DNA from: an uncultured Candidatus Actinomarina sp.
Lineage (GTDB): Bacteria; Actinomycetota; Acidimicrobiia; Actinomarinales; Actinomarinaceae
NCBI GenBank assembly: GCA_902634185.1
Contig: CACPJC010000003.1
Coordinates: 32,369-96,368 of the forward strand
Direction: 5' to 3'
DNA: 64,000 nt
A program made the position numbers and the translations under genes. The notes under the pieces are model-generated. The model was not told where the DNA came from and ran no database searches. It worked only from the letters and a program-made list of their open reading frames with translations. Positions 4,279-39,003 of the stretch are shown piece after piece (the first letter of the stretch is position 1; each line of letters opens with the position of its first letter).

Positions 4279-6969
4279 ATGAGTGAAGAAAAACCTTTAA
4301 ACGTACCTGAATATCTATTGATTAGGTCTGCTGAGGCAAGAGCTAAACATTTAGGTATTTCTGTTGAACAAGCTTTAGCTGAAATCAAGGGAGAAGCTCA
4401 ACCAGTAGTTGAGGAACCTGTAGCTGAAGTTGAAGAACCTGTAGTTGAAGTTGAAGAGCCAGTTGAAGAGGAACCTGTAGCTGAAGTTGAAGAACCTATA
4501 GTTGAAGTTGAAGAGCCAGTTGAAGAACCTGTAGTTGAAGTTGAAGAGCCAGTTGAAGAACCTGTAGTTGAACAAGAACCTTTAGAGGAAGTAAGCATAG
4601 AAAATAAAACTGTTGAGTCTATACCAGCCGTTACCATTCGTTTTGCTGGTGATTCAGGTGATGGTATGCAATTAGTTGGTACTAGATTCACAGACACTTC
4701 TGCTTTATTTGGAAACGACCTTGCTACTTTGCCAGCGTTTCCTGCTGAAATTAGGGCTCCTCAAGGAACAGTTGCAGGTGTATCTTCCTTCCAAGTTCAA
4801 ATTGCTGACTTTGATATTTTGACACCAGGAGATGCCCCTGATGTTTTAGTTGCTATGAACCCTGCTGCTTTGAAAGCTCACCTACAAGATTTAACACCAA
4901 ACGGAATGTTGATATTAAACGAAGATGCTTTTGATGAAAAAAATATTAAAAAAGCAGGTTATGGGATAGATCCTAGAGAATCTGAGGAACTTGATGGATA
5001 TAGAATTTTTCAAGTCCCAATGGAAAAACTAACAAAGGAAGCTTTGGAGGAATTTGATTTACCTGGAAGAGCAGTTTTACGTTCTAAAAATATGATAGCT
5101 CTTGGTTTAATTTCATGGACTTTTAACAGAGATCTAAAAGATACTGAAAATTGGATAAACGAGAAATTCAAAAATCTACCAGAAGTCGCAAAAGCAAACA
5201 TAAAAGCACTCAAGACTGGATACAACTTTGGTATTACAGTTGAGGCATTTCACCATACTTATAAAGTAGATAAGGCCTCATTACCAGCTGGAGAGTATAC
5301 AAATATAAATGGAAATATCGGTTTAAGTTGGGGTCTTATTGCGGGTGCTAAAAAAGCTAATCTCGATCTGTTTTACGGAAGTTATCCTATTACTCCTGCA
5401 TCAGATATATTGCATGAGTTATCAAAACACAAAAATTTCAATGTGTTGACTTTCCAAGCTGAAGATGAAATTGCAGCTGCTGCAGCAGCAGTAGGTGCTT
5501 CCTTTACAGGAAAGCTTGCAGTTACAGGAACCAGTGGACCAGGTCTTGCTCTAAAAAGTGAAACCATATCTTTAGCCCTTTCTGCAGAATTGCCTTTAGT
5601 AGTAGTTAATGTTCAAAGGGGTGGGCCATCAACGGGACTACCTACAAAACCAGAACAGTCTGATCTAATGTTTGCAATGTATGGACGCCATGGAGAGGCT
5701 CCTTTACCAGTAGTTGCAGCTAAATCCCCATCTCATGCTTTCTATGCAGCGTTTGAGGCAACACGTATTGCTCTTAAATATATGACACCCGTTATTTTAT
5801 TGTCAGACAACTATGTTGCTACAGGTTCTGAGCCATGGAAACTACCTGAGATTGAAAACCTTGATGAATTGGGAACAAATTTAACCACGACTTACAACAC
5901 TGAAGATGGGTTTTTACCATTTTTTAGAGATTACGAAACTAATGCTCGACCATGGGCTATTCCTGGAGTACCAGGATTAGAGCATCGTGTAGGTGGATTA
6001 GAAAAAGAAGATGGAACTGGAAATGTTTCTTATGACACTGATAATCACCAATACATGACAGATATGAGAGCATGGAAAATTGAAAATATAGCAAATGATA
6101 TTGACCCACTTGAAATAAATGGAGACATATCATCAGATACTCTCATTTTGGGTTGGGGATCAACTTTTGGTGGTATCACACAAGCTGTAAACAGACTCAA
6201 TTCAAAAGGTGTAAAGGTAGCAAGTGCACACTTCACACACATCAATCCTTTCCCAGACAACACGGCTGAAGTTTTGAGTCAATTTAAAAACATCATTGTC
6301 CCTGAATTAAACACTGGCCAATTGTCAAAACTTTTACGTGCACGTTATCTTGTCGATACTGTCGGAATCAATAAAGTTGAAGGTTTACCTTTTACAGCTC
6401 AAGAATTAGAAGAAAAAATCGAATCTCTCATAAACTCTTTTGGTACAAAACTCGAGCCTATCGTAGAAGAAGTTGTAGCTGAGGAAGAACCTGTAGTTGA
6501 AGAGGTTGTAGAAGAAGTTGTAGCTGAGGAAGAACCTGTAGTTGAAGAGGTTGTAGCTGAGGAAGAACCTGTAGTTGAAGAGGTTGGAATACCAGAACAC
6601 CTCATAATGAGATCTGCTGAAGCACGTGCAAAAGCATTAGGTATACCTGTTGAGCAAGTTTTAGAAGAAATGAGTGCAGATAAACCAGCAGCAGAAACCC
6701 AAGAACCAGTTGTTGAACAAGAACCAGTTCTTGAAGAAGAGCCAGTTGTTGAAGAAGTAAAATCAGATACATCTGAAGAACCAGCAGCAGAAGCTCAAGA
6801 ACCTGTAGTAGAGAGAGTTGTCGAAAGGGTCACTGAAAGAGTGACTGAGAGAATTATTGAAAAAGTTGATGAGAATATGCCTGAGAATAAAGAACTTGTT
6901 CAAGACATTGATGAAGAAAGAAACAAGGTAGAGGAAGAGAAAAAAGAGGAAGTAAAGACTGATGAGTAA
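4279..6969 (+). CDS. korA: 2-oxoglutarate/2-oxoacid:ferredoxin oxidoreductase alpha subunit with atypical N- and C-terminal extensions
   Basis: The core (about aa 115-720) matches KorA/PorA-type 2-oxoacid oxidoreductase alpha subunits. At 896 aa it is about 250 aa longer than usual. The extra length is acidic EEPVVEV repeats plus a duplicated RSAEARAK(H/A)LGI(S/P)VEQ motif at both ends. Confidence 0.85.
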   Translation: MSEEKPLNVPEYLLIRSAEARAKHLGISVEQALAEIKGEAQPVVEEPVAEVEEPVVEVEEPVEEEPVAEVEEPIVEVEEPVEEPVVEVEEPVEEPVVEQEPLEEVSIENKTVESIPAVTIRFAGDSGDGMQLVGTRFTDTSALFGNDLATLPAFPAEIRAPQGTVAGVSSFQVQIADFDILTPGDAPDVLVAMNPAALKAHLQDLTPNGMLILNEDAFDEKNIKKAGYGIDPRESEELDGYRIFQVPMEKLTKEALEEFDLPGRAVLRSKNMIALGLISWTFNRDLKDTENWINEKFKNLPEVAKANIKALKTGYNFGITVEAFHHTYKVDKASLPAGEYTNINGNIGLSWGLIAGAKKANLDLFYGSYPITPASDILHELSKHKNFNVLTFQAEDEIAAAAAAVGASFTGKLAVTGTSGPGLALKSETISLALSAELPLVVVNVQRGGPSTGLPTKPEQSDLMFAMYGRHGEAPLPVVAAKSPSHAFYAAFEATRIALKYMTPVILLSDNYVATGSEPWKLPEIENLDELGTNLTTTYNTEDGFLPFFRDYETNARPWAIPGVPGLEHRVGGLEKEDGTGNVSYDTDNHQYMTDMRAWKIENIANDIDPLEINGDISSDTLILGWGSTFGGITQAVNRLNSKGVKVASAHFTHINPFPDNTAEVLSQFKNIIVPELNTGQLSKLLRARYLVDTVGINKVEGLPFTAQELEEKIESLINSFGTKLEPIVEEVVAEEEPVVEEVVEEVVAEEEPVVEEVVAEEEPVVEEVGIPEHLIMRSAEARAKALGIPVEQVLEEMSADKPAAETQEPVVEQEPVLEEEPVVEEVKSDTSEEPAAEAQEPVVERVVERVTERVTERIIEKVDENMPENKELVQDIDEERNKVEEEKKEEVKTDE
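4380..4600 (+). repeat. Imperfect tandem nucleotide repeats (about 45-50 nt units) encoding (EEPVVEV)n in the korA 5' extension
   Basis: Repeated gaagaacctgtagttgaagttgaagagccagttgaag units are visible in the sequence. Confidence 0.8.
6470..6600 (+). repeat. Three tandem roughly 42-nt repeats (gaagttgtagctgaggaagaacctgtagttgaagaggttgta) in the korA 3' extension
   Basis: Near-identical units encode VVAEEEPVVEEV three times. Confidence 0.8.
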
Positions 6970-7978
6970 AATTCCTCTCTCATATAAAAGAGCTGACTTT
7001 GCTAGTGACCAAGAGGTTAAATGGTGCCCTGGATGTGGTGATTATACAATTCTTGCTTCAGTGCAAAACTTTATGACTGAATTAGGTATCAGAAAAGAAA
7101 ATATTGTGTTTGTATCTGGCATTGGTTGTGCAGCAAGATTTCCTTACTACATGAACACATACGGTTTACATTCTATCCATGGTCGTGCTCCTGCAGTAGC
7201 TACTGGAGTAAGTGCATCTAACCCAGATCTTTCAGTTTGGGTAGTATCTGGAGATGGTGACGCACTATCTATTGGAGGAAACCACTTAATTCATGCACTA
7301 AGAAGAAATGTAAATATGAAGATTTTAATGTTCAATAATCAAATATATGGACTTACCAAAGGACAGTATTCCCCTACCAGTGAAGAAGGAAAGAAAACAA
7401 AATCTTCTCCCTTTGGTTCTGTAGAGCTTCCACTAAACCCAATGAGTTTAGCCTTAGGAGCTGAGGCATCATTTGTTGCAAGGTCAATTGATATGGATAG
7501 AGATCTTACAGCAGAGGTACTTCGAGCAGCATCTGAACATGAGGGCTCAGCTTATGTTGAGATTTATCAAAACTGTAACGTTTTTAATGACAAAGCCTTT
7601 GAGCAGTTAACTTCAAAGGAAGGAAAAATAGCAAATCGTATAAATCTAAAACATGGTGAGAAAGTTATCTTTGGAGCAGAAGATGAAAATGCTGTAACAA
7701 TTCGTGATGGAGAAGCGGTCATAGTCAAAAGATCTGAAATAGATGATAGTGAGATTTATGTTCATGACATTACAAAAGATAACCCTTCAATTGCTTTTTC
7801 ATTATCAAGATTATCTCATGGGCCTTATGGGCCAACGCCAGTAGGTATCTTTAGACAAGTTGAAAGAGATACTTACAATGATGAAGTCAGAGAACAAATT
7901 GACTCATCTATTGAGCAAAAAGGTGAAGGAGAACTTGATAAGCTTATTCGTTCTTTAGGAACTTGGGAAGTTAACTAA
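6962..7978 (+). CDS. korB: 2-oxoglutarate/2-oxoacid:ferredoxin oxidoreductase beta subunit (TPP-binding)
   Basis: CPGCGDY... TPP-binding beta subunit. 8-bp overlap with korA. Confidence 0.85.
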   Translation: MSKIPLSYKRADFASDQEVKWCPGCGDYTILASVQNFMTELGIRKENIVFVSGIGCAARFPYYMNTYGLHSIHGRAPAVATGVSASNPDLSVWVVSGDGDALSIGGNHLIHALRRNVNMKILMFNNQIYGLTKGQYSPTSEEGKKTKSSPFGSVELPLNPMSLALGAEASFVARSIDMDRDLTAEVLRAASEHEGSAYVEIYQNCNVFNDKAFEQLTSKEGKIANRINLKHGEKVIFGAEDENAVTIRDGEAVIVKRSEIDDSEIYVHDITKDNPSIAFSLSRLSHGPYGPTPVGIFRQVERDTYNDEVREQIDSSIEQKGEGELDKLIRSLGTWEVN

Positions 7979-11844: not shown

Positions 11845-12315
11845 TTAAATTTTAAATAGCTTTGCAGATTTTAATTTTCCTTTTTTTATTTTTATCCACC
11901 AATACCCAGCTTTTGGAACCTCAAAATTTTTAACTTCTTTTTTGCTTAATTTATTTTTATTTAAATATTTTGACAAATCGTACATTGTATCTCCATGAGT
12001 TGAAAGGATTACAGTTTTTATCTTCTGCTCAAGTGCAAACTTTAGGGAGGATTCAAACGAACCGTTTTCATTGAGTGAATCTAAAATGTTAATTGGTTGA
12101 GAAGAGTTTTGACTTAATACTCCTACTGTTTCAGTGCATCTAGTTTTAGGAGAAGAAAAAATTAATAATGGAGCAACATCTTTAAATTTTTGTCCAATTT
12201 TATTTGCTTGAAGATTTCCCTTAGCACTTAGCGGTCTTAGAGAATCGTCACCAAACCATCTTTCCCTTTTCCCGGCATGTGCGTGTCTTATAAATATTAT
12301 ATTTTCTAATTCCAT
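11845..12315 (-). CDS. Histidine-phosphatase superfamily protein (SixA-like phosphohistidine phosphatase)
   Basis: IIFIRHAHAG...R... RHG catalytic motif. 156 aa. Sits between ppk and ppx. Confidence 0.7.
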   Translation of the reverse strand: MELENIIFIRHAHAGKRERWFGDDSLRPLSAKGNLQANKIGQKFKDVAPLLIFSSPKTRCTETVGVLSQNSSQPINILDSLNENGSFESSLKFALEQKIKTVILSTHGDTMYDLSKYLNKNKLSKKEVKNFEVPKAGYWWIKIKKGKLKSAKLFKI

Positions 12316-12316
12316 A

Positions 12317-14293
12317 TTATTTGTTTAACTTCTCTTGGATATTGTAGTTTCCATCTAATTTTTTCCATGTTCCATCATTTTTTAACGTCCATGAATACTT
12401 GTCAGACTTTATATATTTTTCTAAGAGACTACTGAGTTTCTTTTTTATTATCGGGCTTTTTATAGGTACTAATACTTCAATTCTATGTCTTAAGTTTCTT
12501 TGCATTAAATCTGCAGACCCTATATATATTTTTTCTATATCTGATTTTCCAAATTTATATATTCTTGAGTGTTCTAAAAAAGGACCAAGTATAGAAATAA
12601 CATTTATATTTTTAATTGGTATGAGACAACAAATTCCCCTTACTATAATATTTATCTGATTACCTGCATTAGCCGCATCATATAATTTTTGTATGATTAA
12701 TGGATCAGTAAGATTATTCAATTTTAAAACAATTTTTCCTTCTTCTCCTAAATCTATTTGTTCTTCAATTAATGAGTTAATATTTTTCTCTAAAGACTCA
12801 GGGGCTACTAGCAACTCATCAAGATTTTCTCTATCAGCATAAGCAGTTAACGAATTAAAAACTATTCCACAATCATTACCAATACTTTTATCAGATGTGA
12901 AAATGCCAATATCCTCATATCCCTTTGATGTTAAAACATTGTAATTACCTGTTCCAAAGTGCATATATGGTACTAATTCATTATTTTCTTCACGAACAAC
13001 TAAAATCATTTTGGTATGAGCTTTATATCTTGGATCTCCATACGTAACATGAACACCTGATTCTTCTAAGTATTCAGCATTCGAGATGTTTTGCTCTTCA
13101 TCGAACCGTGCTCTCAATTCAACTAAAACAGCAACTTGTTTACCTCCTCTCGCTGCACTTGCTAATAGGGATGTTATCTTATCGTTTTCAGCAGTTAAAC
13201 CAGTTCTATATTGTGTCATTTTTATGGCACGTACATATGGATCAAAACATGCTTTTTCTAAAAATCGCAAAACTGTTTTCTCAAATGAATCATAAGGATG
13301 ATGTACCATCACATCATTATTTTTAATAATTTCAAACATATCATTGCTAAATTCAAATTCAGTCTCATGTAATTTCCAACTTGTAGAAAATTCGATATGG
13401 TCTATCAAAGAATTAATTTGAAATCTAGTAAGTGGGTCCTTTAATTCTACTTGAAGGTCATAATCTATTTCTAAATTATTTTTTAAGTATTTTTGAGTTG
13501 TTACTGAAACTCCCTCTTGGATTTCTAATCTTACAATTTTTCCTAATTTTCTATTTTCTAATCCCTCTTTTACAACTTCCAGAAAATTTCGCTTTAAACT
13601 TGCTCTAAATTCTAAATCTGCATCACGAGTTGTTCTAAACCAAAACTTTTCAATAACTGTGTGTGGAAAAAACAGTTTATCAATATAGTGAAGAACCAAT
13701 TCATGTATCCATACAAGTTGTTCCTTATTTAAATTTAAAAATGAACCTAAACTTGCTGGGATTTTTATACGTATAAATTGATTATCTTCAAATTCGTTTT
13801 TGATGACTACGCCGATAGACAATGATAAATCAGAAATGTATGGAAATGGATGTGTAGGGTCTGCAGCCAAGGGAGTAAGGAGGGGTTTTATATTGTTATC
13901 AAAATAATCTTCTAAGATATCAAGCTCAGATTCAGTGAGGTCTTTCATCCTCTTAAAATTTACACCATGCTTTTCTAGATCTTTTACAAAATATTCTTTC
14001 CAAACTGTGTTTCTATTTATCATCTCCTTTTTAGCTTCTTCAAGAATATCTTTAAAATATACAAATGTTTCTTTCGAAATTGAAACATCCAGCTTTTGAT
14101 TAATAGTCTCGTAAACTTTTTCAAGCAATCCAGAAATTCGAATCTGAAAAAACTCATCTAAATTAGAATGTGTTATACCGAATAAAAATAAACGATCCTT
14201 GAAAGGAACACTGCTATCTTTTGATAAAGTTAATACTCTTTTGTTGAACTCTAACCAGGATGATTCACGATCAAGAAGATCTATATCTGTCAT
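12317..14293 (-). CDS. ppk: Polyphosphate kinase 1
   Basis: 658 aa. PPK1 N-terminal, head and two PLD-like C-terminal domains are recognisable (e.g. FRLENRKL-type and HTK... boxes). 4-bp overlap with the upstream kinase gene. Confidence 0.9.
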   Translation of the reverse strand: MTDIDLLDRESSWLEFNKRVLTLSKDSSVPFKDRLFLFGITHSNLDEFFQIRISGLLEKVYETINQKLDVSISKETFVYFKDILEEAKKEMINRNTVWKEYFVKDLEKHGVNFKRMKDLTESELDILEDYFDNNIKPLLTPLAADPTHPFPYISDLSLSIGVVIKNEFEDNQFIRIKIPASLGSFLNLNKEQLVWIHELVLHYIDKLFFPHTVIEKFWFRTTRDADLEFRASLKRNFLEVVKEGLENRKLGKIVRLEIQEGVSVTTQKYLKNNLEIDYDLQVELKDPLTRFQINSLIDHIEFSTSWKLHETEFEFSNDMFEIIKNNDVMVHHPYDSFEKTVLRFLEKACFDPYVRAIKMTQYRTGLTAENDKITSLLASAARGGKQVAVLVELRARFDEEQNISNAEYLEESGVHVTYGDPRYKAHTKMILVVREENNELVPYMHFGTGNYNVLTSKGYEDIGIFTSDKSIGNDCGIVFNSLTAYADRENLDELLVAPESLEKNINSLIEEQIDLGEEGKIVLKLNNLTDPLIIQKLYDAANAGNQINIIVRGICCLIPIKNINVISILGPFLEHSRIYKFGKSDIEKIYIGSADLMQRNLRHRIEVLVPIKSPIIKKKLSSLLEKYIKSDKYSWTLKNDGTWKKLDGNYNIQEKLNK

Positions 14294-14985
14294 ACATTTT
14301 GTTTAAATTTAATTGAAAAAGTAGTGCCCTCACCTAGCAAACTGTCTAGTTCAATTGTCCCGTTATTCCTATCAACTGCATGTTTTACTATTGAAAGACC
14401 GATTCCTGTTCCACCTAAGTTTCTAGACCTGCCTTTATCAATTCTATAGAATCGTTCAAAGATTCTTTCTTGATCTTGTTGAGAGATTCCCTTACCTTTA
14501 TCTATTACTTTGAATAAAACATCTTCATCATCCTTCTTCAAATGAACTTCAATAGGAGTGTCTGGGTCAGAATAAGTAACTGCGTTACGTAATATATTTC
14601 GAACGATTAATGCAAAATCTTCTTGGTCAACATTTATATGAATATTTTCAATGTTTGCATTAAGTCTGGCTTGATCGTTTTCTTTTAAGTATGAAATTTC
14701 CATATTTACTATATTTTCAAGATCAGCAATTTCTAAATTTGGTTCATTTTGCTCAATTTTAGATAAATCAAGTAAATCACTGATAAGGAGTGACATTCGT
14801 TCACTGTTTCTAAGAATTTGTTTAATAAACTTTAATCCATCCTCTGTATTTCCATCATTTATAGCATTTAATGCTGTCTCTGCTGCTAGTTGGATAGACG
14901 TTATCGGAGTTTTCAACTCATGAGATGCATTTGCAACAAAATCTTCTCTTATTTTTTCAATATTTTGTTCTTGATTTTCATTCAT
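14290..14985 (-). CDS. Two-component sensor histidine kinase, core only (HisKA + HATPase_c, no TM or sensor domain)
   Basis: ANASHELKTPITSIQ H-box right at the N-terminus; N, G1 (DKGKGIS) and G2 (GGTGIGLSIV) boxes. Only 231 aa. Confidence 0.8.
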   Translation of the reverse strand: MNENQEQNIEKIREDFVANASHELKTPITSIQLAAETALNAINDGNTEDGLKFIKQILRNSERMSLLISDLLDLSKIEQNEPNLEIADLENIVNMEISYLKENDQARLNANIENIHINVDQEDFALIVRNILRNAVTYSDPDTPIEVHLKKDDEDVLFKVIDKGKGISQQDQERIFERFYRIDKGRSRNLGGTGIGLSIVKHAVDRNNGTIELDSLLGEGTTFSIKFKQNV

Positions 14986-15670
14986 CTTCTACAAGTTTAT
15001 ATCCTACTCCTCTAACAGTTATTAATTTTTTAGGATCTTTTGGATTTTTCTCAATTTTTTCGCGAATTCTTTGTATATGTACATCAAGTGTTTTTGAATT
15101 ACCTATAAACGTATATCCCCATATTTCATCAAATATTTGTTCTCTAGACATTAAATTACCTTTATTCTCACAGAGAGCATAAAGAAGTTCAAATTCTCGA
15201 GGTCTCAAATTAATTTGTTTATCATTAACTTTTGCTTCATATTTACCAATGTCTATCTCAATATTTCCAACTTTTATTGCCTGTGATGATTTTTCATTCT
15301 TAGACATATCTGTCCTTCGTAGCACTGCCCTGACTCTGCTTAATAATTCTCTTACAGAAAATGGCTTTATAACATAATCGTCAGCACCGATTTCAAGTCC
15401 AGCAACTCTATCAGCTTCACTATCTTTAGCAGTAACCATAATTATTGGTATATCTGATGTTTTACGAATCGATCTACATATATCTAAACCAGAAATTTCT
15501 GGAAGCATCAAATCAAGAATAATTAAACTAAACTCTTCTTCCTGGAATAGCTCTAACGCAATAGGTCCTTCATCAACATGAGTTACAGAAAAACCCTCTT
15601 GTTTTAAGTTGTATGATATTGAGTCAGCAATACTATGCTCATCCTCTACTAAAAGGACTTTTTGCTTCAT
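14978..15670 (-). CDS. OmpR/PhoB-family response regulator (RegX3/PhoP-like)
   Basis: Receiver domain (LLVEDE...D...LMLP...K) plus a winged-helix trans_reg_C domain (VHIQRIREKIE...ITVRGVGYKL). Confidence 0.85.
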   Translation of the reverse strand: MKQKVLLVEDEHSIADSISYNLKQEGFSVTHVDEGPIALELFQEEEFSLIILDLMLPEISGLDICRSIRKTSDIPIIMVTAKDSEADRVAGLEIGADDYVIKPFSVRELLSRVRAVLRRTDMSKNEKSSQAIKVGNIEIDIGKYEAKVNDKQINLRPREFELLYALCENKGNLMSREQIFDEIWGYTFIGNSKTLDVHIQRIREKIEKNPKDPKKLITVRGVGYKLVEDE

Positions 15671-16311
15671 TAAAATTCTTTAAACTCTCCGGTAACCAAA
15701 AAGTGTGTGAGCTCACAAATATCAACTGCATGATCTCCACCCCTTTCTAGTGTTCGCATACAGGTAACAAGTCTAAATAATCCATTATACAAATCTTCAT
15801 TGCCAGCAATTTTTGGGGCTTCTTCTAGCATTGAGTTGTATAATCTATTTACTTGACTATCTTTTTCTGACGTTACTAGAGCTAAGTCTTTATCTCTGGT
15901 TTTTAAGCTTTCCATAGCTGATGATGCCATGTCAATTACTATATCTCCCATTTCAACAACTGTTGCATGGATAGACTCTGGTACAGGTGAATCAAAAATC
16001 TCTTTCGTCGTTTTTCCAAGATAGACAGCTAAATCACCAAGACGCTCTAAATGTAAACTGGCTTGTAAAATAGATGTAGAAAGTCTTAAGTCAGTGGCAA
16101 CAAGTTGCTCAGTGGCCATAAGTTCAATCCAGTCCTCATCAATCTTTAGGTAAGATTTATCAATTTCATCATCTTTTTCTATTGTTTCTATAGCTCTATT
16201 GACATCTTTATCCTCTAAAGCTCTTACGCCATCTACTAAAGAATCTAGTACAAGTCTTGCCATTAAATGTAAATCTGTCTCAAGATTGTCAATCTTGTCT
16301 TGTAAACTCAT
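15670..16311 (-). CDS. phoU: Phosphate transport system regulator PhoU
   Basis: 213 aa, two PhoU repeats, adjacent to pstB. Confidence 0.85.
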
Positions 16312-17123
16312 CCAAACCTTCCAGATATATATTGTTCAGTTAATTCCTCATCAGGATTTGTAAACATGGTATTCGTTTCATTGAACTCAACTAATTCTCC
16401 AGTTCTTCTTTTGCCATCATCGGAGGTTTTAGTTGTAAAAAATGCACAATAATCAGAGGCTCTTGAGGCTTGCTGCATATTGTGCGTAACAATAAGAATT
16501 GAAAACTCTTTCACTAACTCTTGCATAAGGTCTTCTATTTTTTTTGTTGCTACAGGGTCTAATGCAGAGCAAGGCTCGTCCATTAAAATTGTATCTGGCT
16601 CAACTGCAATTGTTCTAGCAATACACAATCTTTGTTGCTGACCACCTGATAGCTCTAATGCATTTTTGTTTAAATCATCTTTTACTTCATCCCATAACGC
16701 TGCTTGAGTTAATGCCCTCTCTACTCTTTCATCCATATTGTCAGTCATGTTGTTGACTTTAAGCCCAAAGGTAATATTTTCTTTGATAGTTTTTGGGAAA
16801 GGATTTGGTTTTTGAAAAACCATTCCGATTCTTCTTCTCACTTGCACTGGATCAACCATTTTGTCGTATAAATCAACACCTTGATAATTTATTGTTCCAT
16901 TAACTTTTGCACCCAATATAAGATCATTCATTCTATTAAATGTTCTTATCAAAGTACTCTTTCCACAACCAGATGGGCCAATAAAAGCTGTAATTTTATT
17001 TTTAGAGATATCCATATTTACATTTTTGATAGCTACGAATTCTCCGTAGCTTACGGAGACATCTTTTACATTGAATACATTTTCATTGTTTACTTGAACT
17101 GTTTCTTTAGTTTCCATTCTCAT
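16308..17123 (-). CDS. pstB: Phosphate ABC transporter ATP-binding protein
   Basis: Walker [23 protein letters not shown] signature, and PstB-type length. Confidence 0.9.
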
Positions 17124-17141: not shown

Positions 17142-18089
17142 CTAAAAATCTTTCTCATATCTGTTTCTTATAAATATTGCTATTGAATTCATTAATAATA
17201 ATAAACCTAGAAGTAAAATGATTCCAGCGGAAGCTGTCTCCTTCCACTCAGCTTGAGGATAACCAACCCAGTTATAAACTTGAATTGGAATAGCGGTAAA
17301 CCCACTTAAAGGAGTGTCTGGAAAATAATTAACATAAGTCAATGCACCCATAAAAATTAATGGTGCGGTCTCTCCAATTGCTCTTGAGAGCCCAAGGACC
17401 ATTCCAGTAACCATTCCTGGTATTGCAGAGGGAACAACCTGCCTAAAAACTGCTTGAAATTTAGTGGAACCTAGCGCCAATGCACCCTGGCGTATTGTAT
17501 CTGGAACAGCTTTAAGAGCCTCCCTAGATGCTACGATTACAACTGGAAGAATTAATAACGTTAATGTTAAACCTCCTGAAAGTACTGACCTTCCAAATCC
17601 AGCTAAACGAACAAAAACAGCTAATCCTAGTAAACCATAAATAACTGATGGAACTCCAGCCAAGTTTGTTAGATTTAATTCAATAAATCTTGTAAGCCTA
17701 TTTTTTGGAGCAAATTCTTGAAGATATATTGCTGCTCCTGCACCAAAAGGAAATGTTGCAGAAATAACTATTATCATTAACCATAATGTTCCAGCAAAAG
17801 CAGGTCCAATACCAGCTCTATCTGGATATCTTGAGTCTAAAGTTGTTAAAAAATCTCTCGGGTTATCAATTTGTATTTTTGTAATGAGGCCAACCTCGTA
17901 GTCTGATGTCAATCTTGTAGTCCCAGTAGAAAGAACATCATAGATTAAGGTCATCAAAGTTAAAATAGCAATCGTTACACAAATATAAAGAGTGAACAGA
18001 AACAAACTCTCCTTTATTGCATTTTCAGCTTTCTTGCCGGTTATAATTGTTTCGTTACTCATATTCTTTTCTGTACTTTCTAGCGACAT
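17142..18089 (-). CDS. pstA: Phosphate ABC transporter permease PstA
   Basis: Polytopic permease with the EAA-like loop. Its position in the pst operon supports the call. Confidence 0.85.
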   Translation of the reverse strand: MSLESTEKNMSNETIITGKKAENAIKESLFLFTLYICVTIAILTLMTLIYDVLSTGTTRLTSDYEVGLITKIQIDNPRDFLTTLDSRYPDRAGIGPAFAGTLWLMIIVISATFPFGAGAAIYLQEFAPKNRLTRFIELNLTNLAGVPSVIYGLLGLAVFVRLAGFGRSVLSGGLTLTLLILPVVIVASREALKAVPDTIRQGALALGSTKFQAVFRQVVPSAIPGMVTGMVLGLSRAIGETAPLIFMGALTYVNYFPDTPLSGFTAIPIQVYNWVGYPQAEWKETASAGIILLLGLLLLMNSIAIFIRNRYEKDF

Positions 18090-18972
18090 AATCAGAAGCT
18101 ATATTCAAAATAAAAGTCATAATAAATAAAGTTATTCCAAGTGCGAATAAAGCATTATAAGCAGTGGTGCCATGAGGTGTATCACCAAGGGATACGTTTA
18201 CTATTGAGGAAGTGATCGTATACATTGCACTCCTAGGATCTAAATTTAATTCAGGATACTGCCCACCTGCAATAGTCACAATCATTGTTTCACCTATGGC
18301 TCTTGAAAAACCTAATATAAATGAAGCAATAATTCCAGATATTGCTGCAGGGAACATAATTTTAAGTGCTGTGATCCTCCTGGTAGAGCCAAGAGCTAAG
18401 GATCCATTCCTTAGAGAGTTTGGTACTGCATTAAGGGCATCATCAGAGATTGATGCAATTGTAGGTATTATCATTATTCCTACTGCAATACCTGCGGACA
18501 GAGCATTGAATACACCGGTACCTGGAATAAATCTTTGAATTATATTTGGCGTAATCCAGTTAAGTGCAAAATAACCAAATACCACTGTAGGAACTCCAGC
18601 CAAAACTTCTAAAACTGGTTTGATAACTTTTCTTGTTCTTTTTGTGGCAAACTCAGATAGGTAAATTGCAGAAAACAAACCTAATGGAAAAGAAATAAGA
18701 CACGCAATAACCGCAATATAAAGAGTTGAAGAGATTAAAACAATAACACCGTACTCAGGATTTTGAAACGTAGGTGTCCACCTAGTTGCAGTAAAATAGC
18801 CCTTTAAAGTTACAGCTGGATCTTGAAAAAAGTTAATGGCTTCAGTTAGTAAGGTAAAAACAATTGAAATTGATATTAGTATTGCTGCAAAAGCAGAGAC
18901 AGTTATAAAAAATTTTACTACTTTTTCAAAAGGTTTTATTGAGGTTTGAGATAATTCAGATAGTAGACTCAT
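18055..18972 (-). CDS. pstC: Phosphate ABC transporter permease PstC
   Basis: Polytopic permease. Position in the operon supports the call. Confidence 0.85.
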   Translation of the reverse strand: MSLLSELSQTSIKPFEKVVKFFITVSAFAAILISISIVFTLLTEAINFFQDPAVTLKGYFTATRWTPTFQNPEYGVIVLISSTLYIAVIACLISFPLGLFSAIYLSEFATKRTRKVIKPVLEVLAGVPTVVFGYFALNWITPNIIQRFIPGTGVFNALSAGIAVGIMIIPTIASISDDALNAVPNSLRNGSLALGSTRRITALKIMFPAAISGIIASFILGFSRAIGETMIVTIAGGQYPELNLDPRSAMYTITSSIVNVSLGDTPHGTTAYNALFALGITLFIMTFILNIASDYVARKYRKEYE

Positions 18973-19015: not shown

Positions 19016-19044
19016 TTTGTGAGGGCCAATTAGGCCCTCACAAA
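19016..19044 (-). other. Perfect 12-bp GC-rich inverted repeat (TTTGTGAGGGCC-AATTA-GGCCCTCACAAA) between pstS and pstC; candidate intra-operon attenuator or mRNA-stabilising hairpin
   Basis: Seen directly in the sequence. There is no U-tract on the transcribed side, so it is not a canonical intrinsic terminator. Confidence 0.5.
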
Positions 19045-19065: not shown

Positions 19066-20922
19066 TTATCCTCGACTGAATGCGGACCAGCCCATCAATG
19101 ATGCCATCTTTTGTTCTGGAAGCATTGGAACATATCCCACTGCTGGGACAATTGCATCCATTGCTACGAAATAAAAGTCAACAAATTGACGAACTTGAGA
19201 CATTCCTTTTGCAGCTTCAGCTACATAAATGAATAGCGGACGTGCTAGGAAGTAATTTCCTTCAAAAGCTGCTTCTGGTGGTTGACAACCATCACCTGCA
19301 TCAACTTCAACAGCAGTTAGTTTATCTTTGTTCTCTTCATAATATGCGAGTCCAAAGTATCCTAATCCACCAGCTGATCCTGCGACACCGTTTACGAGAA
19401 CGTTGTCATCTTCAGATGCTGTATAGTCTGATCGACTTCCACCTGCGTCTTCTGTAAGCTCTTCATTGAAGAAGTCAAATGTACCTGAGTCTGTACCTGG
19501 ACCATATAGGTCTAGTGCAACATCAGGGAAACCTGCTCTAACATCTTTCCAGTTTGTTATTGTGCTATCTGCACCCCAGATTGATGTTAATTCAGCAGTT
19601 GTTAAACATGTTGCCCAGTCATTTGATGTTGGAACAACAACAGAAAGTGCATCGATACCTACTTGAATTTCAAGGTATCCAACACCATTTTCTTCACAAA
19701 GTGCTTTTTCTTTATCTTTAATTGGACGTGACGCGTCTGAAATCATTGTCTCACCTGGACAGAATTTCTTGAATCCTCCACCAGTTCCTGAAACACCGAC
19801 TGATATAGCTACATCTGAATGAATAGCTGTAAACTCTTCAGCAACGGCTTGTGTTACAGGGAACACTGTCGATGAACCATCAATAAGAATTTCTCCACTG
19901 AGGGTTGAATCGCCAGATATAACCTGCCAGTATTCTAATTGTCTATCAGCTGCATCTGGCAACATTGGTATGTAGCCAACAGCTTCAACAATTGGATCAA
20001 GTGAGTCAAAGTAAAAGTCAACGAAAGCTTTGATTACAGGATCTTTTGCTTTAGCATCATTTACATATATAAATAATGGTCTTGCTAATCCATAAGTTCC
20101 TGAGAAAGCTCCTTCAGGACCTATACATCCTTTTCCTGCATCAACTTCAACAGCAGTTAGTTTATCTTTGTTCTCTTCATAATATGCGAGTCCAAAGTAT
20201 CCTAATCCACCAGCTGATCCAGAGACACCGTTTACGAGAACGTTGTCATCTTCAGATGCTGTATAGTCTGATCGACTTCCACCCAAATCTTCAGTTATTT
20301 CTTCATTGAAGAAGTCAAATGTACCTGAGTCTGTACCTGGACCATATAGGTCTAGTGCAACATCAGGGAAACCTGCTCTAACATCTTTCCAGTTTGTTAT
20401 TGTGCTATCTGCACCCCAGATTTTTCCTAATTCTTCAACTGTTAAACATGTTGCCCAGTCATTTGATGTTGGAACAACAACAGAAAGTGCATCTACACCG
20501 ACTTGTAGTTCAGTGAACTCTGTGCCACCTTCATAACAGAGATTTCTTTCTTTATCTTTGATTGGTCTTGAAGCATCAGATATATCTGTTTCTCCAGGAC
20601 AAAATTTCTTGAATCCTCCACCGGTTCCTGACACACCTACAGATATTTCTACACCTGGGTTAACTGCAGTAAATTCTTCTGCTACAGCTTGTGTAATAGG
20701 GAAAACAGTTGAAGATCCGTCGATAAGTATTGATCCAGTTAAGCCTGCATCACTACTACCACTATCAGAAGCTACAGTTGTTTGACTACTGGCTGTTTCC
20801 TCCGATGTTGTTGGTTCTTCACTTTCTTCTGAAGAGGTATCATCATCTCCACCACCACAGGCAGCAAGAACGAGAACCATCACAAGAAGTAAAGACCAAA
20901 ACTTAGATCTTGATCTAATCAT
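19066..20922 (-). CDS. pstS: Phosphate-binding lipoprotein PstS with two tandem complete PstS domains
   Basis: Lipoprotein signal (LVLAACGG), an acidic S/T/E-rich linker, then two about 280-aa PBP domains with the [15 protein letters not shown]...DASRP phosphate-binding boxes. The domains are >80% identical to each other. Confidence 0.85.
19100..20790. repeat. Intragenic tandem duplication (about 840 bp each) forming the two PstS domains, with stretches of >100 nt nearly identical
   Basis: For example, 19300..19440 is nearly identical to 20140..20280. The antisense ORFs 19242..19457 and 20076..20309 are near-identical echoes of this duplication. Confidence 0.85.
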
Positions 20923-20974
20923 GGATTTCCTTTCTTTAATTTAATTAAATTAACAATGGTAAGAGTATTTTGTA

Positions 20975-20996
20975 AAAGTAAACGCAAAGTAAACGT
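20975..20996 (-). promoter_or_regulatory. Candidate Pho box: two 11-bp direct repeats (C/A)GTTTACTTT(G/T) upstream of pstS
   Basis: On the pstS coding strand the sequence reads CGTTTACTTTGCGTTTACTTTTAC, about 55-75 nt upstream of the pstS start. The 11-bp periodicity is typical of PhoB/PhoP/RegX3-family direct-repeat sites. Confidence 0.3.
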
Positions 20997-21018: not shown

Positions 21019-21849
21019 TCAAATTAACTCAGTAGGTGAAAACCAATTTCCTCTATTAAATGCTAGGATATAACTTTCGTATCCAAGAAAGTCTTTTTGA
21101 TATTCTTCAGGGATATTGAATCCCCACCAATCTGTTTTAAATTGTGATCGATGAGCCTTCATAGAATTGATTTTATTTTCAATATACTTTGTTCCATCTA
21201 TTTCGACATCAATATCCTCATTATCACTTCCGATAGGATTAAATGCATTAAACTCATCTTCAGTTAATATTCCAGCCTCATACATTTGAGTTCGTCTTGC
21301 TTGAATTCTCGATTTTGACCACGCATTAAAATAAAGTCTTTCTGGAATCCATATGTCTTCTTCATCTTTTAATGGAAACTTATCTATATCACCAGCTGCA
21401 AAAAACGCAGCTGTTCCAACTCTATGTGTTTGAATATGATCAGGATGCCCATATCCCCCAAATGGATCATAGGTTATTAAAACATCAGGTTTATATTTTC
21501 TTATTTCTGTCACAAGCTTGCCCACAGGTCCAAAATAGTCTTGTCTCCAAAAACAATCAGGATCATTGTTCTCCTCTGTGCCCATCATTCCAGAGTCTTT
21601 ATATCCAAGCCATTCATATTCTTTTACACCTAGAGCATCTAAACTTTTTTCAAGTTCCTCTTTTCGCATTTCAGCCAATTTTGGAAATAACTCTTCTGGG
21701 TTTTCATAGTTATGAATTTCTCCAGCTGAACCATCAGTTGCTGTAACAACAACAACTCGATGACCTTCATCTGCATATTTAGCTAAGGTAACACCTGTTG
21801 ATACGCTTTCATCGTCAGGATGTGCGTGAAAAGCAAGAATTGTTGCCAT
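21019..21849 (-). CDS. PIG-L/LmbE-family N-acetylglucosaminyl deacetylase (MshB/Mca-like)
   Basis: AFHAHPDDES...TDG...HPDH zinc-binding motifs of the LmbE family. 276 aa. Confidence 0.7.
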   Translation of the reverse strand: MATILAFHAHPDDESVSTGVTLAKYADEGHRVVVVTATDGSAGEIHNYENPEELFPKLAEMRKEELEKSLDALGVKEYEWLGYKDSGMMGTEENNDPDCFWRQDYFGPVGKLVTEIRKYKPDVLITYDPFGGYGHPDHIQTHRVGTAAFFAAGDIDKFPLKDEEDIWIPERLYFNAWSKSRIQARRTQMYEAGILTEDEFNAFNPIGSDNEDIDVEIDGTKYIENKINSMKAHRSQFKTDWWGFNIPEEYQKDFLGYESYILAFNRGNWFSPTELI

Positions 21850-37920: not shown

Positions 37921-39003
37921 TTAATTACCACTTTCTATCCTAGTAAGAATCCCTGAAACAACGAGTCTTTGCCTAGCAGAGTACCTAGGGTGACAAGTTG
38001 TCAATGTCAGCCTGTCATCACCTCGATTAAAAAGAACATAATCTCCTGTGTTAGCATCAACCACTTCTATATCATCCACAATGTAATGGTATTTATTTGA
38101 CCCATATGTTAAATAAATCTCATCTCCAATTTCGACCAAATCTAATCTACTGAAAGGGGCACCATATGTTGTCCTATGGCCTGCAATTCCAACATTTCCA
38201 CCTGAACCCGGTAGTTTTGTCCCAAGATAGTGTCCTGGACCAAATTGCAAATTAAGTTCATCAGTACCTGAAACAACATATTGATTTACGTTTATACCTG
38301 GAATTTCAAGAAGACCGAATATTTCAGGTTGAAATTCATCAATCTTTGCACTTTGGTCAATGATGGTAAAATCTTGCAAAGTTTCAAAAACAGGAATGTC
38401 ACTTTGGAATAAGCGAAGAGGATTTGAAAAAATTGTAGGAGGATCTACGTCCTTTATTTCCTCACCTAGATAGATTTGTTCAAGATAAGCTTGAGCATTG
38501 TCTTGTTGAACATTTGATAAAAACATTTGTTGTGTTGCATAAATACCAAAACCCATACCTGTAATTATCGATAAAACAGCAAATCCAAGAGCAGGTCGTT
38601 TTAATTTTTTTCTATCAAAAAATTTTCTGTTAATTTTTTTTGTGTCTTTTTTTCGAGAAAATACCTTTTTCTCCGCGATTTTTGCATCGAGCTCATTACC
38701 AGAATATATAATTTGAAAGTTATTTGAAATTAGACCCAAACGCTCTTCAAGAATTTCTTTTGTAAGTTCTGTATTTTCTTCCTCGCAAATAGATTTTATG
38801 TTTTCAATTGCGACTAGAGTATATTGAAGCTCACTATCAAGTGCTTGTATCTCTGATTGATAAGTTGTAAAACTCTTTGCATATGGAGCAAATTTATTTA
38901 TATCAATACTAATTTCTACTTTTTCTTGTATTAGTTTCTCAATTTTTGTTTTTAATTTGAAGGCATGCTTATAAATATCCTCTAGCGAAATTTCACTTTC
39001 CAT
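37921..39003 (-). CDS. Class E sortase module (possible independent gene starting at the ATG at 39003..39001)
   Basis: About 130-aa cytoplasmic charged region, a TM helix (ALGFAVLSIITGMGFGIYA), then a catalytic domain with GHRTTYGAPF (His), LTLTTCHP (TLxTC Cys) and a downstream Arg. These are sortase hallmarks. A long N-terminal extension before the TM is typical of class E enzymes. Confidence 0.7.
   Translation of the reverse strand: MESEISLEDIYKHAFKLKTKIEKLIQEKVEISIDINKFAPYAKSFTTYQSEIQALDSELQYTLVAIENIKSICEEENTELTKEILEERLGLISNNFQIIYSGNELDAKIAEKKVFSRKKDTKKINRKFFDRKKLKRPALGFAVLSIITGMGFGIYATQQMFLSNVQQDNAQAYLEQIYLGEEIKDVDPPTIFSNPLRLFQSDIPVFETLQDFTIIDQSAKIDEFQPEIFGLLEIPGINVNQYVVSGTDELNLQFGPGHYLGTKLPGSGGNVGIAGHRTTYGAPFSRLDLVEIGDEIYLTYGSNKYHYIVDDIEVVDANTGDYVLFNRGDDRLTLTTCHPRYSARQRLVVSGILTRIESGN

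Follow-up and report, generated by a model that had tools for sequence, protein, structure and literature searches.

A two-domain PstS lipoprotein of Candidatus Actinomarina with a central segment apparently homogenized by intragenic gene conversion

The pstS gene located on the minus strand of a 64,000-nt stretch of DNA (the window; contig CACPJC010000003.1) from an uncultured Candidatus Actinomarina sp. (the OCS155 marine Actinobacteria) encodes two intact PstS modules on one lipoprotein and heads the pst operon. The evidence set out below makes it probable that this is a genuine and conserved two-domain PstS, derived from an old in-frame duplication, in which the centre of the two repeats has been homogenized by gene conversion and both heads have been maintained. 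Textbooks present PstS as the high-affinity receptor for phosphate, and ocean surveys routinely use it as a marker of phosphorus stress. To our knowledge, structural and kinetic work on the protein all assumes a single binding site per molecule, and the members characterized and crystallized so far all possess one binding domain per polypeptide, unlike the Actinomarina protein, which carries two domains on one lipid anchor. What is new here is a bivalent PstS lipoprotein that appears to be partly homogenized by intragenic conversion; no new principle is yet involved. The gene and its parts are as follows.

19066..20922, minus strand: pstS, 618 aa, lipoprotein with two complete PstS domains (open reading frame (ORF), TIGR02136, PF12849, AlphaFold2 model)
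20857..20922, minus strand: signal peptide and lipobox (aa 1-22, ...LVLAAC, lipidated Cys22; sequence reading)
20743..20856, minus strand: acidic Ser/Thr/Glu-rich disordered tether of 38 aa (aa 23-60; composition and AlphaFold2 per-residue confidence, pLDDT)
19903..20742, minus strand: PstS domain A (aa 61-340), closer to the membrane anchor (domain profile spans 61-338)
19069..19902, minus strand: PstS domain B (aa 341-618), distal, similar to the single domain of one-domain relatives (domain profile spans 341-618)

The gene is 1857 nt long, with its stop codon at 19066-19068, and an earlier note on this DNA, which described a 618-aa PstS lipoprotein with two full phosphate-binding domains, is borne out by the agreement of ORF, profiles and motifs. 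The NCBIfam PstS-family model TIGR02136 (514.7 bits; cut-off 206.6) and the Pfam model PF12849 (PBP_like_2; 222.8 bits, cut-off 27) each match in two stretches. Self-alignment reveals a tandem repeat of mosaic identity in which A and B align in register exactly 280 aa, or 840 nt, apart, and the junction between them is in frame, consisting of a very short linker (...VISGDST/LSGE...) with no remnant of a signal peptide or tether. A 15-residue motif is found at aa 98-112 in A and 378-392 in B, followed in each half by a DASRP motif (aa 116-120 and 396-400, respectively). In the crystal structure of a SAR11 PstS (9jwy), phosphate is held by Ser-Ser-Thr, the Thr of GTGGG, the Ser of ASR and the Gly-Thr of SGT (PMC12421899). 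The ligand-contacting residues are the same in A (S70 S71 T72, T100, S118 R119, S199 G200 T201) and B (S350 S351 T352, T380, S398 R399, S479 G480 T481), and the residue sets SST, T, SR, SGT and DDN, present in both domains, are invariant or nearly so across 66 homologues, as are the lipobox residues C22 (invariant) and A21 (nearly invariant). No second pstS gene was found within the 64-kb window.

An AlphaFold2 model built with the 66 homologues (mean pLDDT 83.5) predicts two well-folded binding-protein domains, with values mostly of 80-96 in both, preceded by a disordered region at residues 1-58 that includes a helix at 8-19 and falls below 50 at 19-58; the predicted template modelling score (pTM) is only 0.55, leaving the mutual orientation of A and B undefined. 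When this predicted model was searched against the PDB with Foldseek, the top matches were all phosphate-binding proteins, the best being 4jwo (template modelling score 0.89, normalized to the target; root mean square deviation 2.1 Å; 47% identity). By sequence, ligand residues and predicted fold, each half is a full member of the PstS family, in the TIGR02136/PF12849 branch that includes 4jwo from Planctomyces limnophilus, 9jwy from SAR11 and PBP-1 of C. perfringens (4q8r).

Over 280 codons, A and B share 77% identity at both the amino acid and the nucleotide level, but this similarity is distributed as a mosaic. The first 240 nt of the repeat are 72% identical and the last 234 nt 57% identical, with third-position identity of ∼0.5 in both, a value that represents saturation given the G+C content of ∼0.2 at third codon positions (GC3) of pstS, whereas the central 360 nt are 94% identical with third-position identity of 0.93. 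The central segments correspond to two apparent gene-conversion tracts.

20143..20502, minus strand: gene-conversion tract, domain A copy (∼aa 141-260; 94% nt identity to the B copy, synonymous divergence, quartets)
19303..19662, minus strand: gene-conversion tract, domain B copy (94% nt identity to the A copy, synonymous divergence, quartets, converted tract in a Tara strain)

The two copies share exact runs of 123 nt (20300..20422 = 19460..19582) and 86 nt (20135..20220 = 19295..19380), together with others of 60 and 54 nt; shuffling the codon columns 10,000 times gave longest identical runs of 28 nt on average and 81 nt at most, against the 123 nt observed. The virtual identity that had been claimed for 20140..20280 and 19300..19440 amounts to 139 of 141 positions, and the description of the halves as nearly identical at the nucleotide level is apt for the central ∼360 nt, but not for the repeat as a whole or for its saturated flanks. 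As judged from the order of secondary structure elements in the model, the central tract covers approximately the second lobe of the fold. In the cryo-EM structure of E. coli PstSCAB a single PstS docks with its N-lobe on PstA and its C-lobe on PstC (PMC12976172), and by analogy of topology the homogenized lobe would be the one that sits on PstC.

The history of the two halves was examined using codon alignments of A and B from the window and from loci L002, L003 and L081, together with the single domain of L004. In the flanks, synonymous divergence (dS) between A and B is 1.14-1.88, and across species A groups with A and B with B. Since the flanks are saturated and A and B each associate with their own orthologues, the duplication appears, robustly, to be old and to predate the divergence of the sampled two-domain species. 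In the centre the relationship is reversed: dS between A and B of one genome is 0.11 in the window and 0.33 in L002, compared with 0.65-0.70 between orthologues, and third-position identity is 0.63-0.67 for orthologues versus 0.93 for paralogues of one genome. Quartet site patterns computed for the window and L002 favour concerted evolution over orthology by 31 to 7 in the centre, whereas the flanks favour orthology (N-terminal 6:22, C-terminal 4:55, together 10:77), a contrast that is highly significant (Fisher p = 3e-14).

Further evidence of exchange is provided by the Tara strain L081, which is 99% identical to the window gene and differs from it at 17 nt. Ten of these differences lie close together in domain B, at gene positions 1464-1542 (window 19381..19459), and every one of them replaces the B state by that of A; together they make up one A-to-B tract of at least 79 nt. 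That the tract differs between strains 99% identical implies that conversion is still active, and both copies in single-cell genome L001 carry the same G-to-A change at their homologous site. The mosaic of dS, the quartets and the L081 tract therefore support ongoing intragenic gene conversion as the process likely to maintain the central identity, which was one of two alternatives offered in the earlier note; the other, recent duplication, is contradicted by the flank dS and by the presence of both A and B orthologues in species ∼12% diverged. GC-biased gene conversion was also considered, but GC3 of the tract (0.21-0.27) is barely above that of the flanks (0.14-0.24) and gives no clear signal.

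Concerted evolution of duplicated bacterial genes is familiar from tufA/tufB, rRNA operons and the repeat domains of surface proteins. The Actinomarina gene resembles such cases in that its paralogues are closer than its orthologues, its mosaic has sharp borders and its tracts are polymorphic among strains; it differs from the textbook examples in that the partners are the two halves of one transport-receptor ORF. The Actinomarina genome in which this occurs is extremely streamlined (∼1.1 Mb) and has very few paralogues (PMC7771536).

Both heads are under strong purifying selection, with orthologous dN/dS (dN, non-synonymous divergence) of 0.03-0.13 for A and B in every segment. The C-terminal 78 residues are strongly divergent between A and B (dN 0.53; 38% of non-synonymous sites differ), but each version is conserved among orthologues (dN/dS 0.03-0.06), so that the tails are position-specific; that of A ends in a helix and a short linker into B, while that of B is a free C-terminus. 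The following course of events would account for these properties. The second module would have arisen long ago, when the whole mature domain was duplicated in frame, after which the N-terminal ∼80 and C-terminal ∼78 residues diverged into position-specific versions while the central ∼120 residues were repeatedly overwritten between the copies by homologous recombination within the gene. Each head would bind one phosphate, and because one PstS sits on PstCA at a time (PMC12976172), the heads would dock alternately on the single PstC/PstA translocator, both feeding it. Such an arrangement would double the capture sites per translated, secreted and lipidated molecule, close to the translocator, on a very small, wall-enclosed cell, whose little membrane area would be the setting in which a benefit is likely.

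Several considerations weigh against this scheme. The proposal that both heads work is drawn from their conservation; the divergence of the C-terminal tails means that the heads may not be equivalent; and the low pTM provides no confident geometry by which to judge the steric access of both heads to PstCA. In addition, B and the single domains of one-domain relatives share a state at four sites of the C-terminal part at which A has the outgroup state, the reverse being found at none, so the origin of the gene could be older than proposed or could lie in the fusion of two paralogous genes.

The main functional rival is that the heads are non-equivalent, one of them docking and the other acting as an antenna or reservoir, or differing in affinity or in the phosphorus ligand bound. 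This bears on the comparison with GlnPQ of Lactococcus lactis and other Gram-positives, in which two class-II binding domains in series serve one translocator in a single-membrane cell (PMC8025302) and which is the closest working analogy, the Actinomarina PstS likewise having two complete, membrane-tethered binding domains in series. The GlnPQ domains are fused to the transmembrane subunit, whereas PstS is a separate lipoprotein with its own stop codon, followed by a 93-nt spacer and a pstC gene with its own start, and for want of such a fusion it does not belong to the GlnPQ class. The tandem domains of GlnPQ also differ in specificity (PMC8025302), a precedent for non-equivalence. SAR11 PstS, which has the same Pro in place of E. 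coli Arg135, binds organophosphates weakly (PMC12421899), which also speaks for this rival. The position-specific tails described above and the last ∼18 residues of each unit, which are position-specific in other multi-domain PstS proteins as well (including L082), point in the same direction. In contrast to GlnPQ, however, the ligand-contacting residues of A and B are identical, but their C-terminal thirds differ strongly; homogenization affects the very lobe that would sit on PstC, and the divergence of the A tail may be structural, given that it connects to B. Non-equivalence is viewed as an unlikely explanation, if one to be taken seriously, and two heads feeding one translocator is preferred.

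With respect to the origin of the second domain, one-domain PstS proteins are encoded by an Actinomycetota metagenome-assembled genome (L004) and by metagenome loci L087-L090, which are 77-80% identical in the best segment, and by L092, which is only 63% identical; these Actinomarinales-like relatives were assigned by sequence identity, with synteny seen for L004. In neighbour-joining trees of the flanks (80-120 columns), the single domains of L004 and L087-L090 group with B. This pattern hints that the duplication is older and A was lost, that A evolves faster, or that A is a fused paralogue; as a sign that duplication predates the single-domain lineages it is a hint too weak to support a claim. 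Fusion would have joined two adjacent paralogous pstS genes with loss of a stop codon and of the signal peptide and linker of the second. Adjacent separate pstS genes do occur in Methylophilaceae loci L013 and L037, and the placement of A outside B plus the one-domain relatives at the four C-terminal sites would fit a fusion, but faster evolution of A accounts equally well for the tree, there is no second pstS within 6 kb in L004, and neither the lack of a signal-peptide or tether remnant nor the repeat period of exactly 280 codons is expected from it. Fusion therefore ranks somewhat below non-equivalent heads and is improbable as compared with duplication in frame.

Two further observations were made on these loci. 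The possibility that the L004 PstS represents a collapsed A/B chimera was rejected, as its diagnostic residues are scattered (11 A-like, 24 B-like and 19 neither) with no blocks. The PIG-L family gene upstream of pstS (window 21019..21849, minus strand; 5068-5898 in L002 and L003; 5084-5914 in L004) is only 80% identical between the window and the others, while the copies in L002, L003 and L004 share 95-99% identity; in pstC and pstA, on the other hand, it is L004 that stands apart, the window and L002 being 93-95% identical. The incongruent histories on either side of pstS suggest a recombination boundary, and the conflict between flanking genes means that they provide no consistent relationship for timing the duplication.

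The remaining explanations fare much worse than fusion. Recent duplication, with too little time for divergence and no gene conversion, would be in keeping with the exact runs of 123 and 86 nt, but it predicts uniform divergence along the repeat rather than the strong mosaic found, and it is opposed by the saturated synonymous sites of the flanks, the existence of A and B orthologues in other species, the greater closeness of paralogues than orthologues in the centre and the variation of the tract between strains 99% identical; it is considered very improbable. Equally hard to credit is the idea that the central identity reflects a nucleotide-level constraint, such as codon usage or mRNA structure, rather than recombination. 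The centre is indeed the best-conserved segment of the protein (dN 0.05-0.08), but synonymous sites in the same segment vary freely between orthologues and not between paralogues, so that constraint on DNA or RNA cannot explain the identity, nor would it produce the block replacement seen in L081.

The possibility of an assembly artefact, raised in the earlier note, is countered by the recovery of the same architecture from independent sources. Genes of identical length (1857 nt) were found in single-cell genome AG-920-J05 (7 nt differences), in the Tara Oceans scaffold L081, whose neighbouring genes match those of the window (ATP synthase beta and epsilon, the PIG-L family gene, pstS and pstC), and in the Sanger contig AACY020548835 of the Global Ocean Sampling expedition (GOS; 4 nt differences). 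Two-domain orthologues 87-88% identical are present in L002, L003, L084 and L086, which comprise two single-cell genomes and two metagenome contigs. Comparison with the pstS of relatives thus reveals the two-domain form in both independent and diverged Actinomarina assemblies. The warning that such a repeat is prone to assembly trouble proved justified, since three other public copies are broken within the 100%-identical A/B tract, namely P0007 and P0019, with gaps of 25-28 residues and also a 3-residue insertion, and L091 (1482-2899), with a frame break between two ORFs; these defects would destroy the fold and are most likely repeat-induced assembly errors. That the window gene is itself an expanded one-domain pstS or a concatenation of two strain variants is the least credible of all the explanations, notwithstanding the difficulty that tandem repeats pose to assemblers, in view of its identical structure in four independent assemblies by three technologies (single-cell genome, Illumina metagenome and Sanger GOS), the same structure in diverged orthologues, halves that at only 77% identity would not collapse, ends that are position-specific and conserved across species, and an in-frame junction free of any signal-peptide remnant.

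Multi-domain PstS proteins are not confined to Actinomarina. Among the best 120 database homologues (P0002-P0120 among them), 103 carry two full PstS domains and another 15 carry three; they are only ∼50% identical to the Actinomarina protein, and the domains within one protein usually share 90-100% amino acid identity, with a median of 92% and with ∼20 proteins at 100%. For 85 two-domain proteins falling in one cluster, same-position identity between proteins equals cross-position identity and both are lower than identity within a protein, which exceeds that between proteins in 3,556 protein pairs, a pattern that reads as a signature of concerted evolution. Where the units of these proteins differ, they do so mainly in their last ∼18 residues. 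Locus L082 (5001-7868) contains a three-domain gene in which two units are 100% identical over ∼480 nt, and L083 (5001-6842) a two-domain gene on a 3.9-Mb contig; both lie in operons of the Chloroflexota type that encode a response regulator, histidine kinase and BacA followed by pstS-pstCAB-phoU. The Actinomarina protein is similar to these in its lipobox, tether, multiple domains and operon position (L082 and L083), and in a within-protein likeness that exceeds the likeness of orthologous domains. It is dissimilar in being homogenized in the central third only, whereas the database proteins are usually homogenized over nearly the whole domain.

Multi-domain forms nevertheless represent a minority architecture, recurrent in other phyla as far as sequences reveal: they make up ∼7 of the 150 best representatives of 50%-identity clusters matching one domain, and among 78 loci of GTDB species representatives with a full domain match, the fusion is limited to the three Actinomarina loci (L001-L003). 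In databases the multi-domain proteins are labelled just as "PstS family", phrase searches over 8 million papers found no description of a tandem or multi-domain PstS or of the architecture of Actinomarina pstS, and phosphate transporters receive only a brief mention in the Actinomarinales genome paper (PMC7771536). The suggestion that a two-headed receptor would fit an oligotrophic lifestyle is plausible but not specific, because close relatives have one domain and multi-domain PstS is common in Chloroflexota-type lineages.

A more general proposal, offered tentatively and with doubts as to its being correct, is that the number of heads (one, two or three) constitutes a recombination "accordion" that is kept going by gene conversion and tracks phosphate scarcity as a general strategy. 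The existence of two- and three-domain versions with domains up to 92-94% identical, the one-domain relatives of Actinomarina and the identity pattern in the 3,556 pairs would be consistent with it. If the proposal held, tethered heads would raise uptake through local receptor concentration or by head-to-head handover of phosphate.

The genes and sites associated with pstS are listed below.

18055..18972, minus strand: pstC (ORF, Pfam BPD_transp_1)
17142..18089, minus strand: pstA (ORF, Pfam BPD_transp_1)
16308..17123, minus strand: pstB (ORF, Pfam ABC_tran)
15670..16311, minus strand: phoU (ORF, Pfam PhoU)
14978..15670, minus strand: OmpR-type response regulator (Pfam Response_reg and Trans_reg_C)
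14290..14985, minus strand: histidine kinase of 231 aa without sensor or membrane segment (Pfam HisKA and HATPase_c only)
11845..14293, minus strand: polyphosphate kinase (ppk1, 658 aa) and a small protein of the histidine phosphatase family
20975..20994, minus strand: Pho-box-like direct repeat GTTTACTTTGC-GTTTACTTT, 11-nt period, 53 nt upstream of the ATG
20928..20934, minus strand: ribosome-binding site GAAAGGA, 5 nt before the ATG (sequence reading; conserved in L002 and L003)
19016..19044, minus strand: 12-bp G+C-rich hairpin without a U-tract, in the 93-nt pstS-pstC spacer (folding)

Like other pstS genes, that of Actinomarina heads a pstSCAB-phoU operon, with pstC, pstA, pstB and phoU directly downstream on the same strand, and the region from 11.8 to 20.9 kb forms a single cluster, all on one strand, devoted to phosphate management. 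The position of a sensor-less kinase after phoU suggests signalling through PhoU/PstB. Upstream of pstS, the GTTTACTTTGC-GTTTACTTT repeat is the sole match in the window (0.03 expected by chance), and it is the core of the spacer that stays conserved in L002, L003 and L004 while the rest varies. With a period of 11 nt the repeat would suit binding by a Pho regulator of the OmpR family, which makes GTTTACTTTGCGTTTACTTT a putative target of the adjacent regulator, and expression is probably induced by phosphate starvation via this repeat and that regulator. In L004 a second Pho-box-like direct repeat, ATTTACTTTCTATTTACTTTT, is located between the hairpin and pstC (∼7070-7092), which the window spacer does not have.

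The hairpin between pstS and pstC has a minimum free energy of -33.1 kcal/mol (z -6.2), and hairpins are present at the corresponding place in L002 (∼7878-7905), L084 and L004 (∼7000-7050), where position and strength are kept but the sequence is different. By analogy with other pst operons it is probably an mRNA stabilizer or attenuator that allows the pstS message to outlast or outnumber that of pstCAB, and would thereby favour PstS over PstCAB.

Internal repetition was also observed in two other genes of the window. A 3003-aa ORF (37921..46932, minus strand) contains several families of internal tandem DNA repeats with periods of ∼320-340 nt that are 78-92% identical, and has a Sortase domain at the very C-terminal end (aa 2875-2994, E 1.6e-29); this is either a sortase fusion of a giant, repeat-rich surface protein or a pair of genes sharing one frame. 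An 896-aa ORF resembling 2-oxoacid:ferredoxin oxidoreductase (POR, POR_N; 4279..6969, plus strand) has short tandem repeats at 4402-4592 and 6454-6586.

The retention of 840 extra bases implies that the valency of this receptor is under selection. Two domains per gene affect the interpretation of pstS read counts and of protein abundances, and the identical tract is capable of breaking short-read assemblies. The Actinomarina pstS offers a clean natural case of what appears to be ongoing intragenic gene conversion in an uncultured bacterium with a tiny genome, and the similar pattern across many other phyla suggests that multivalent binding proteins form a class still awaiting study.

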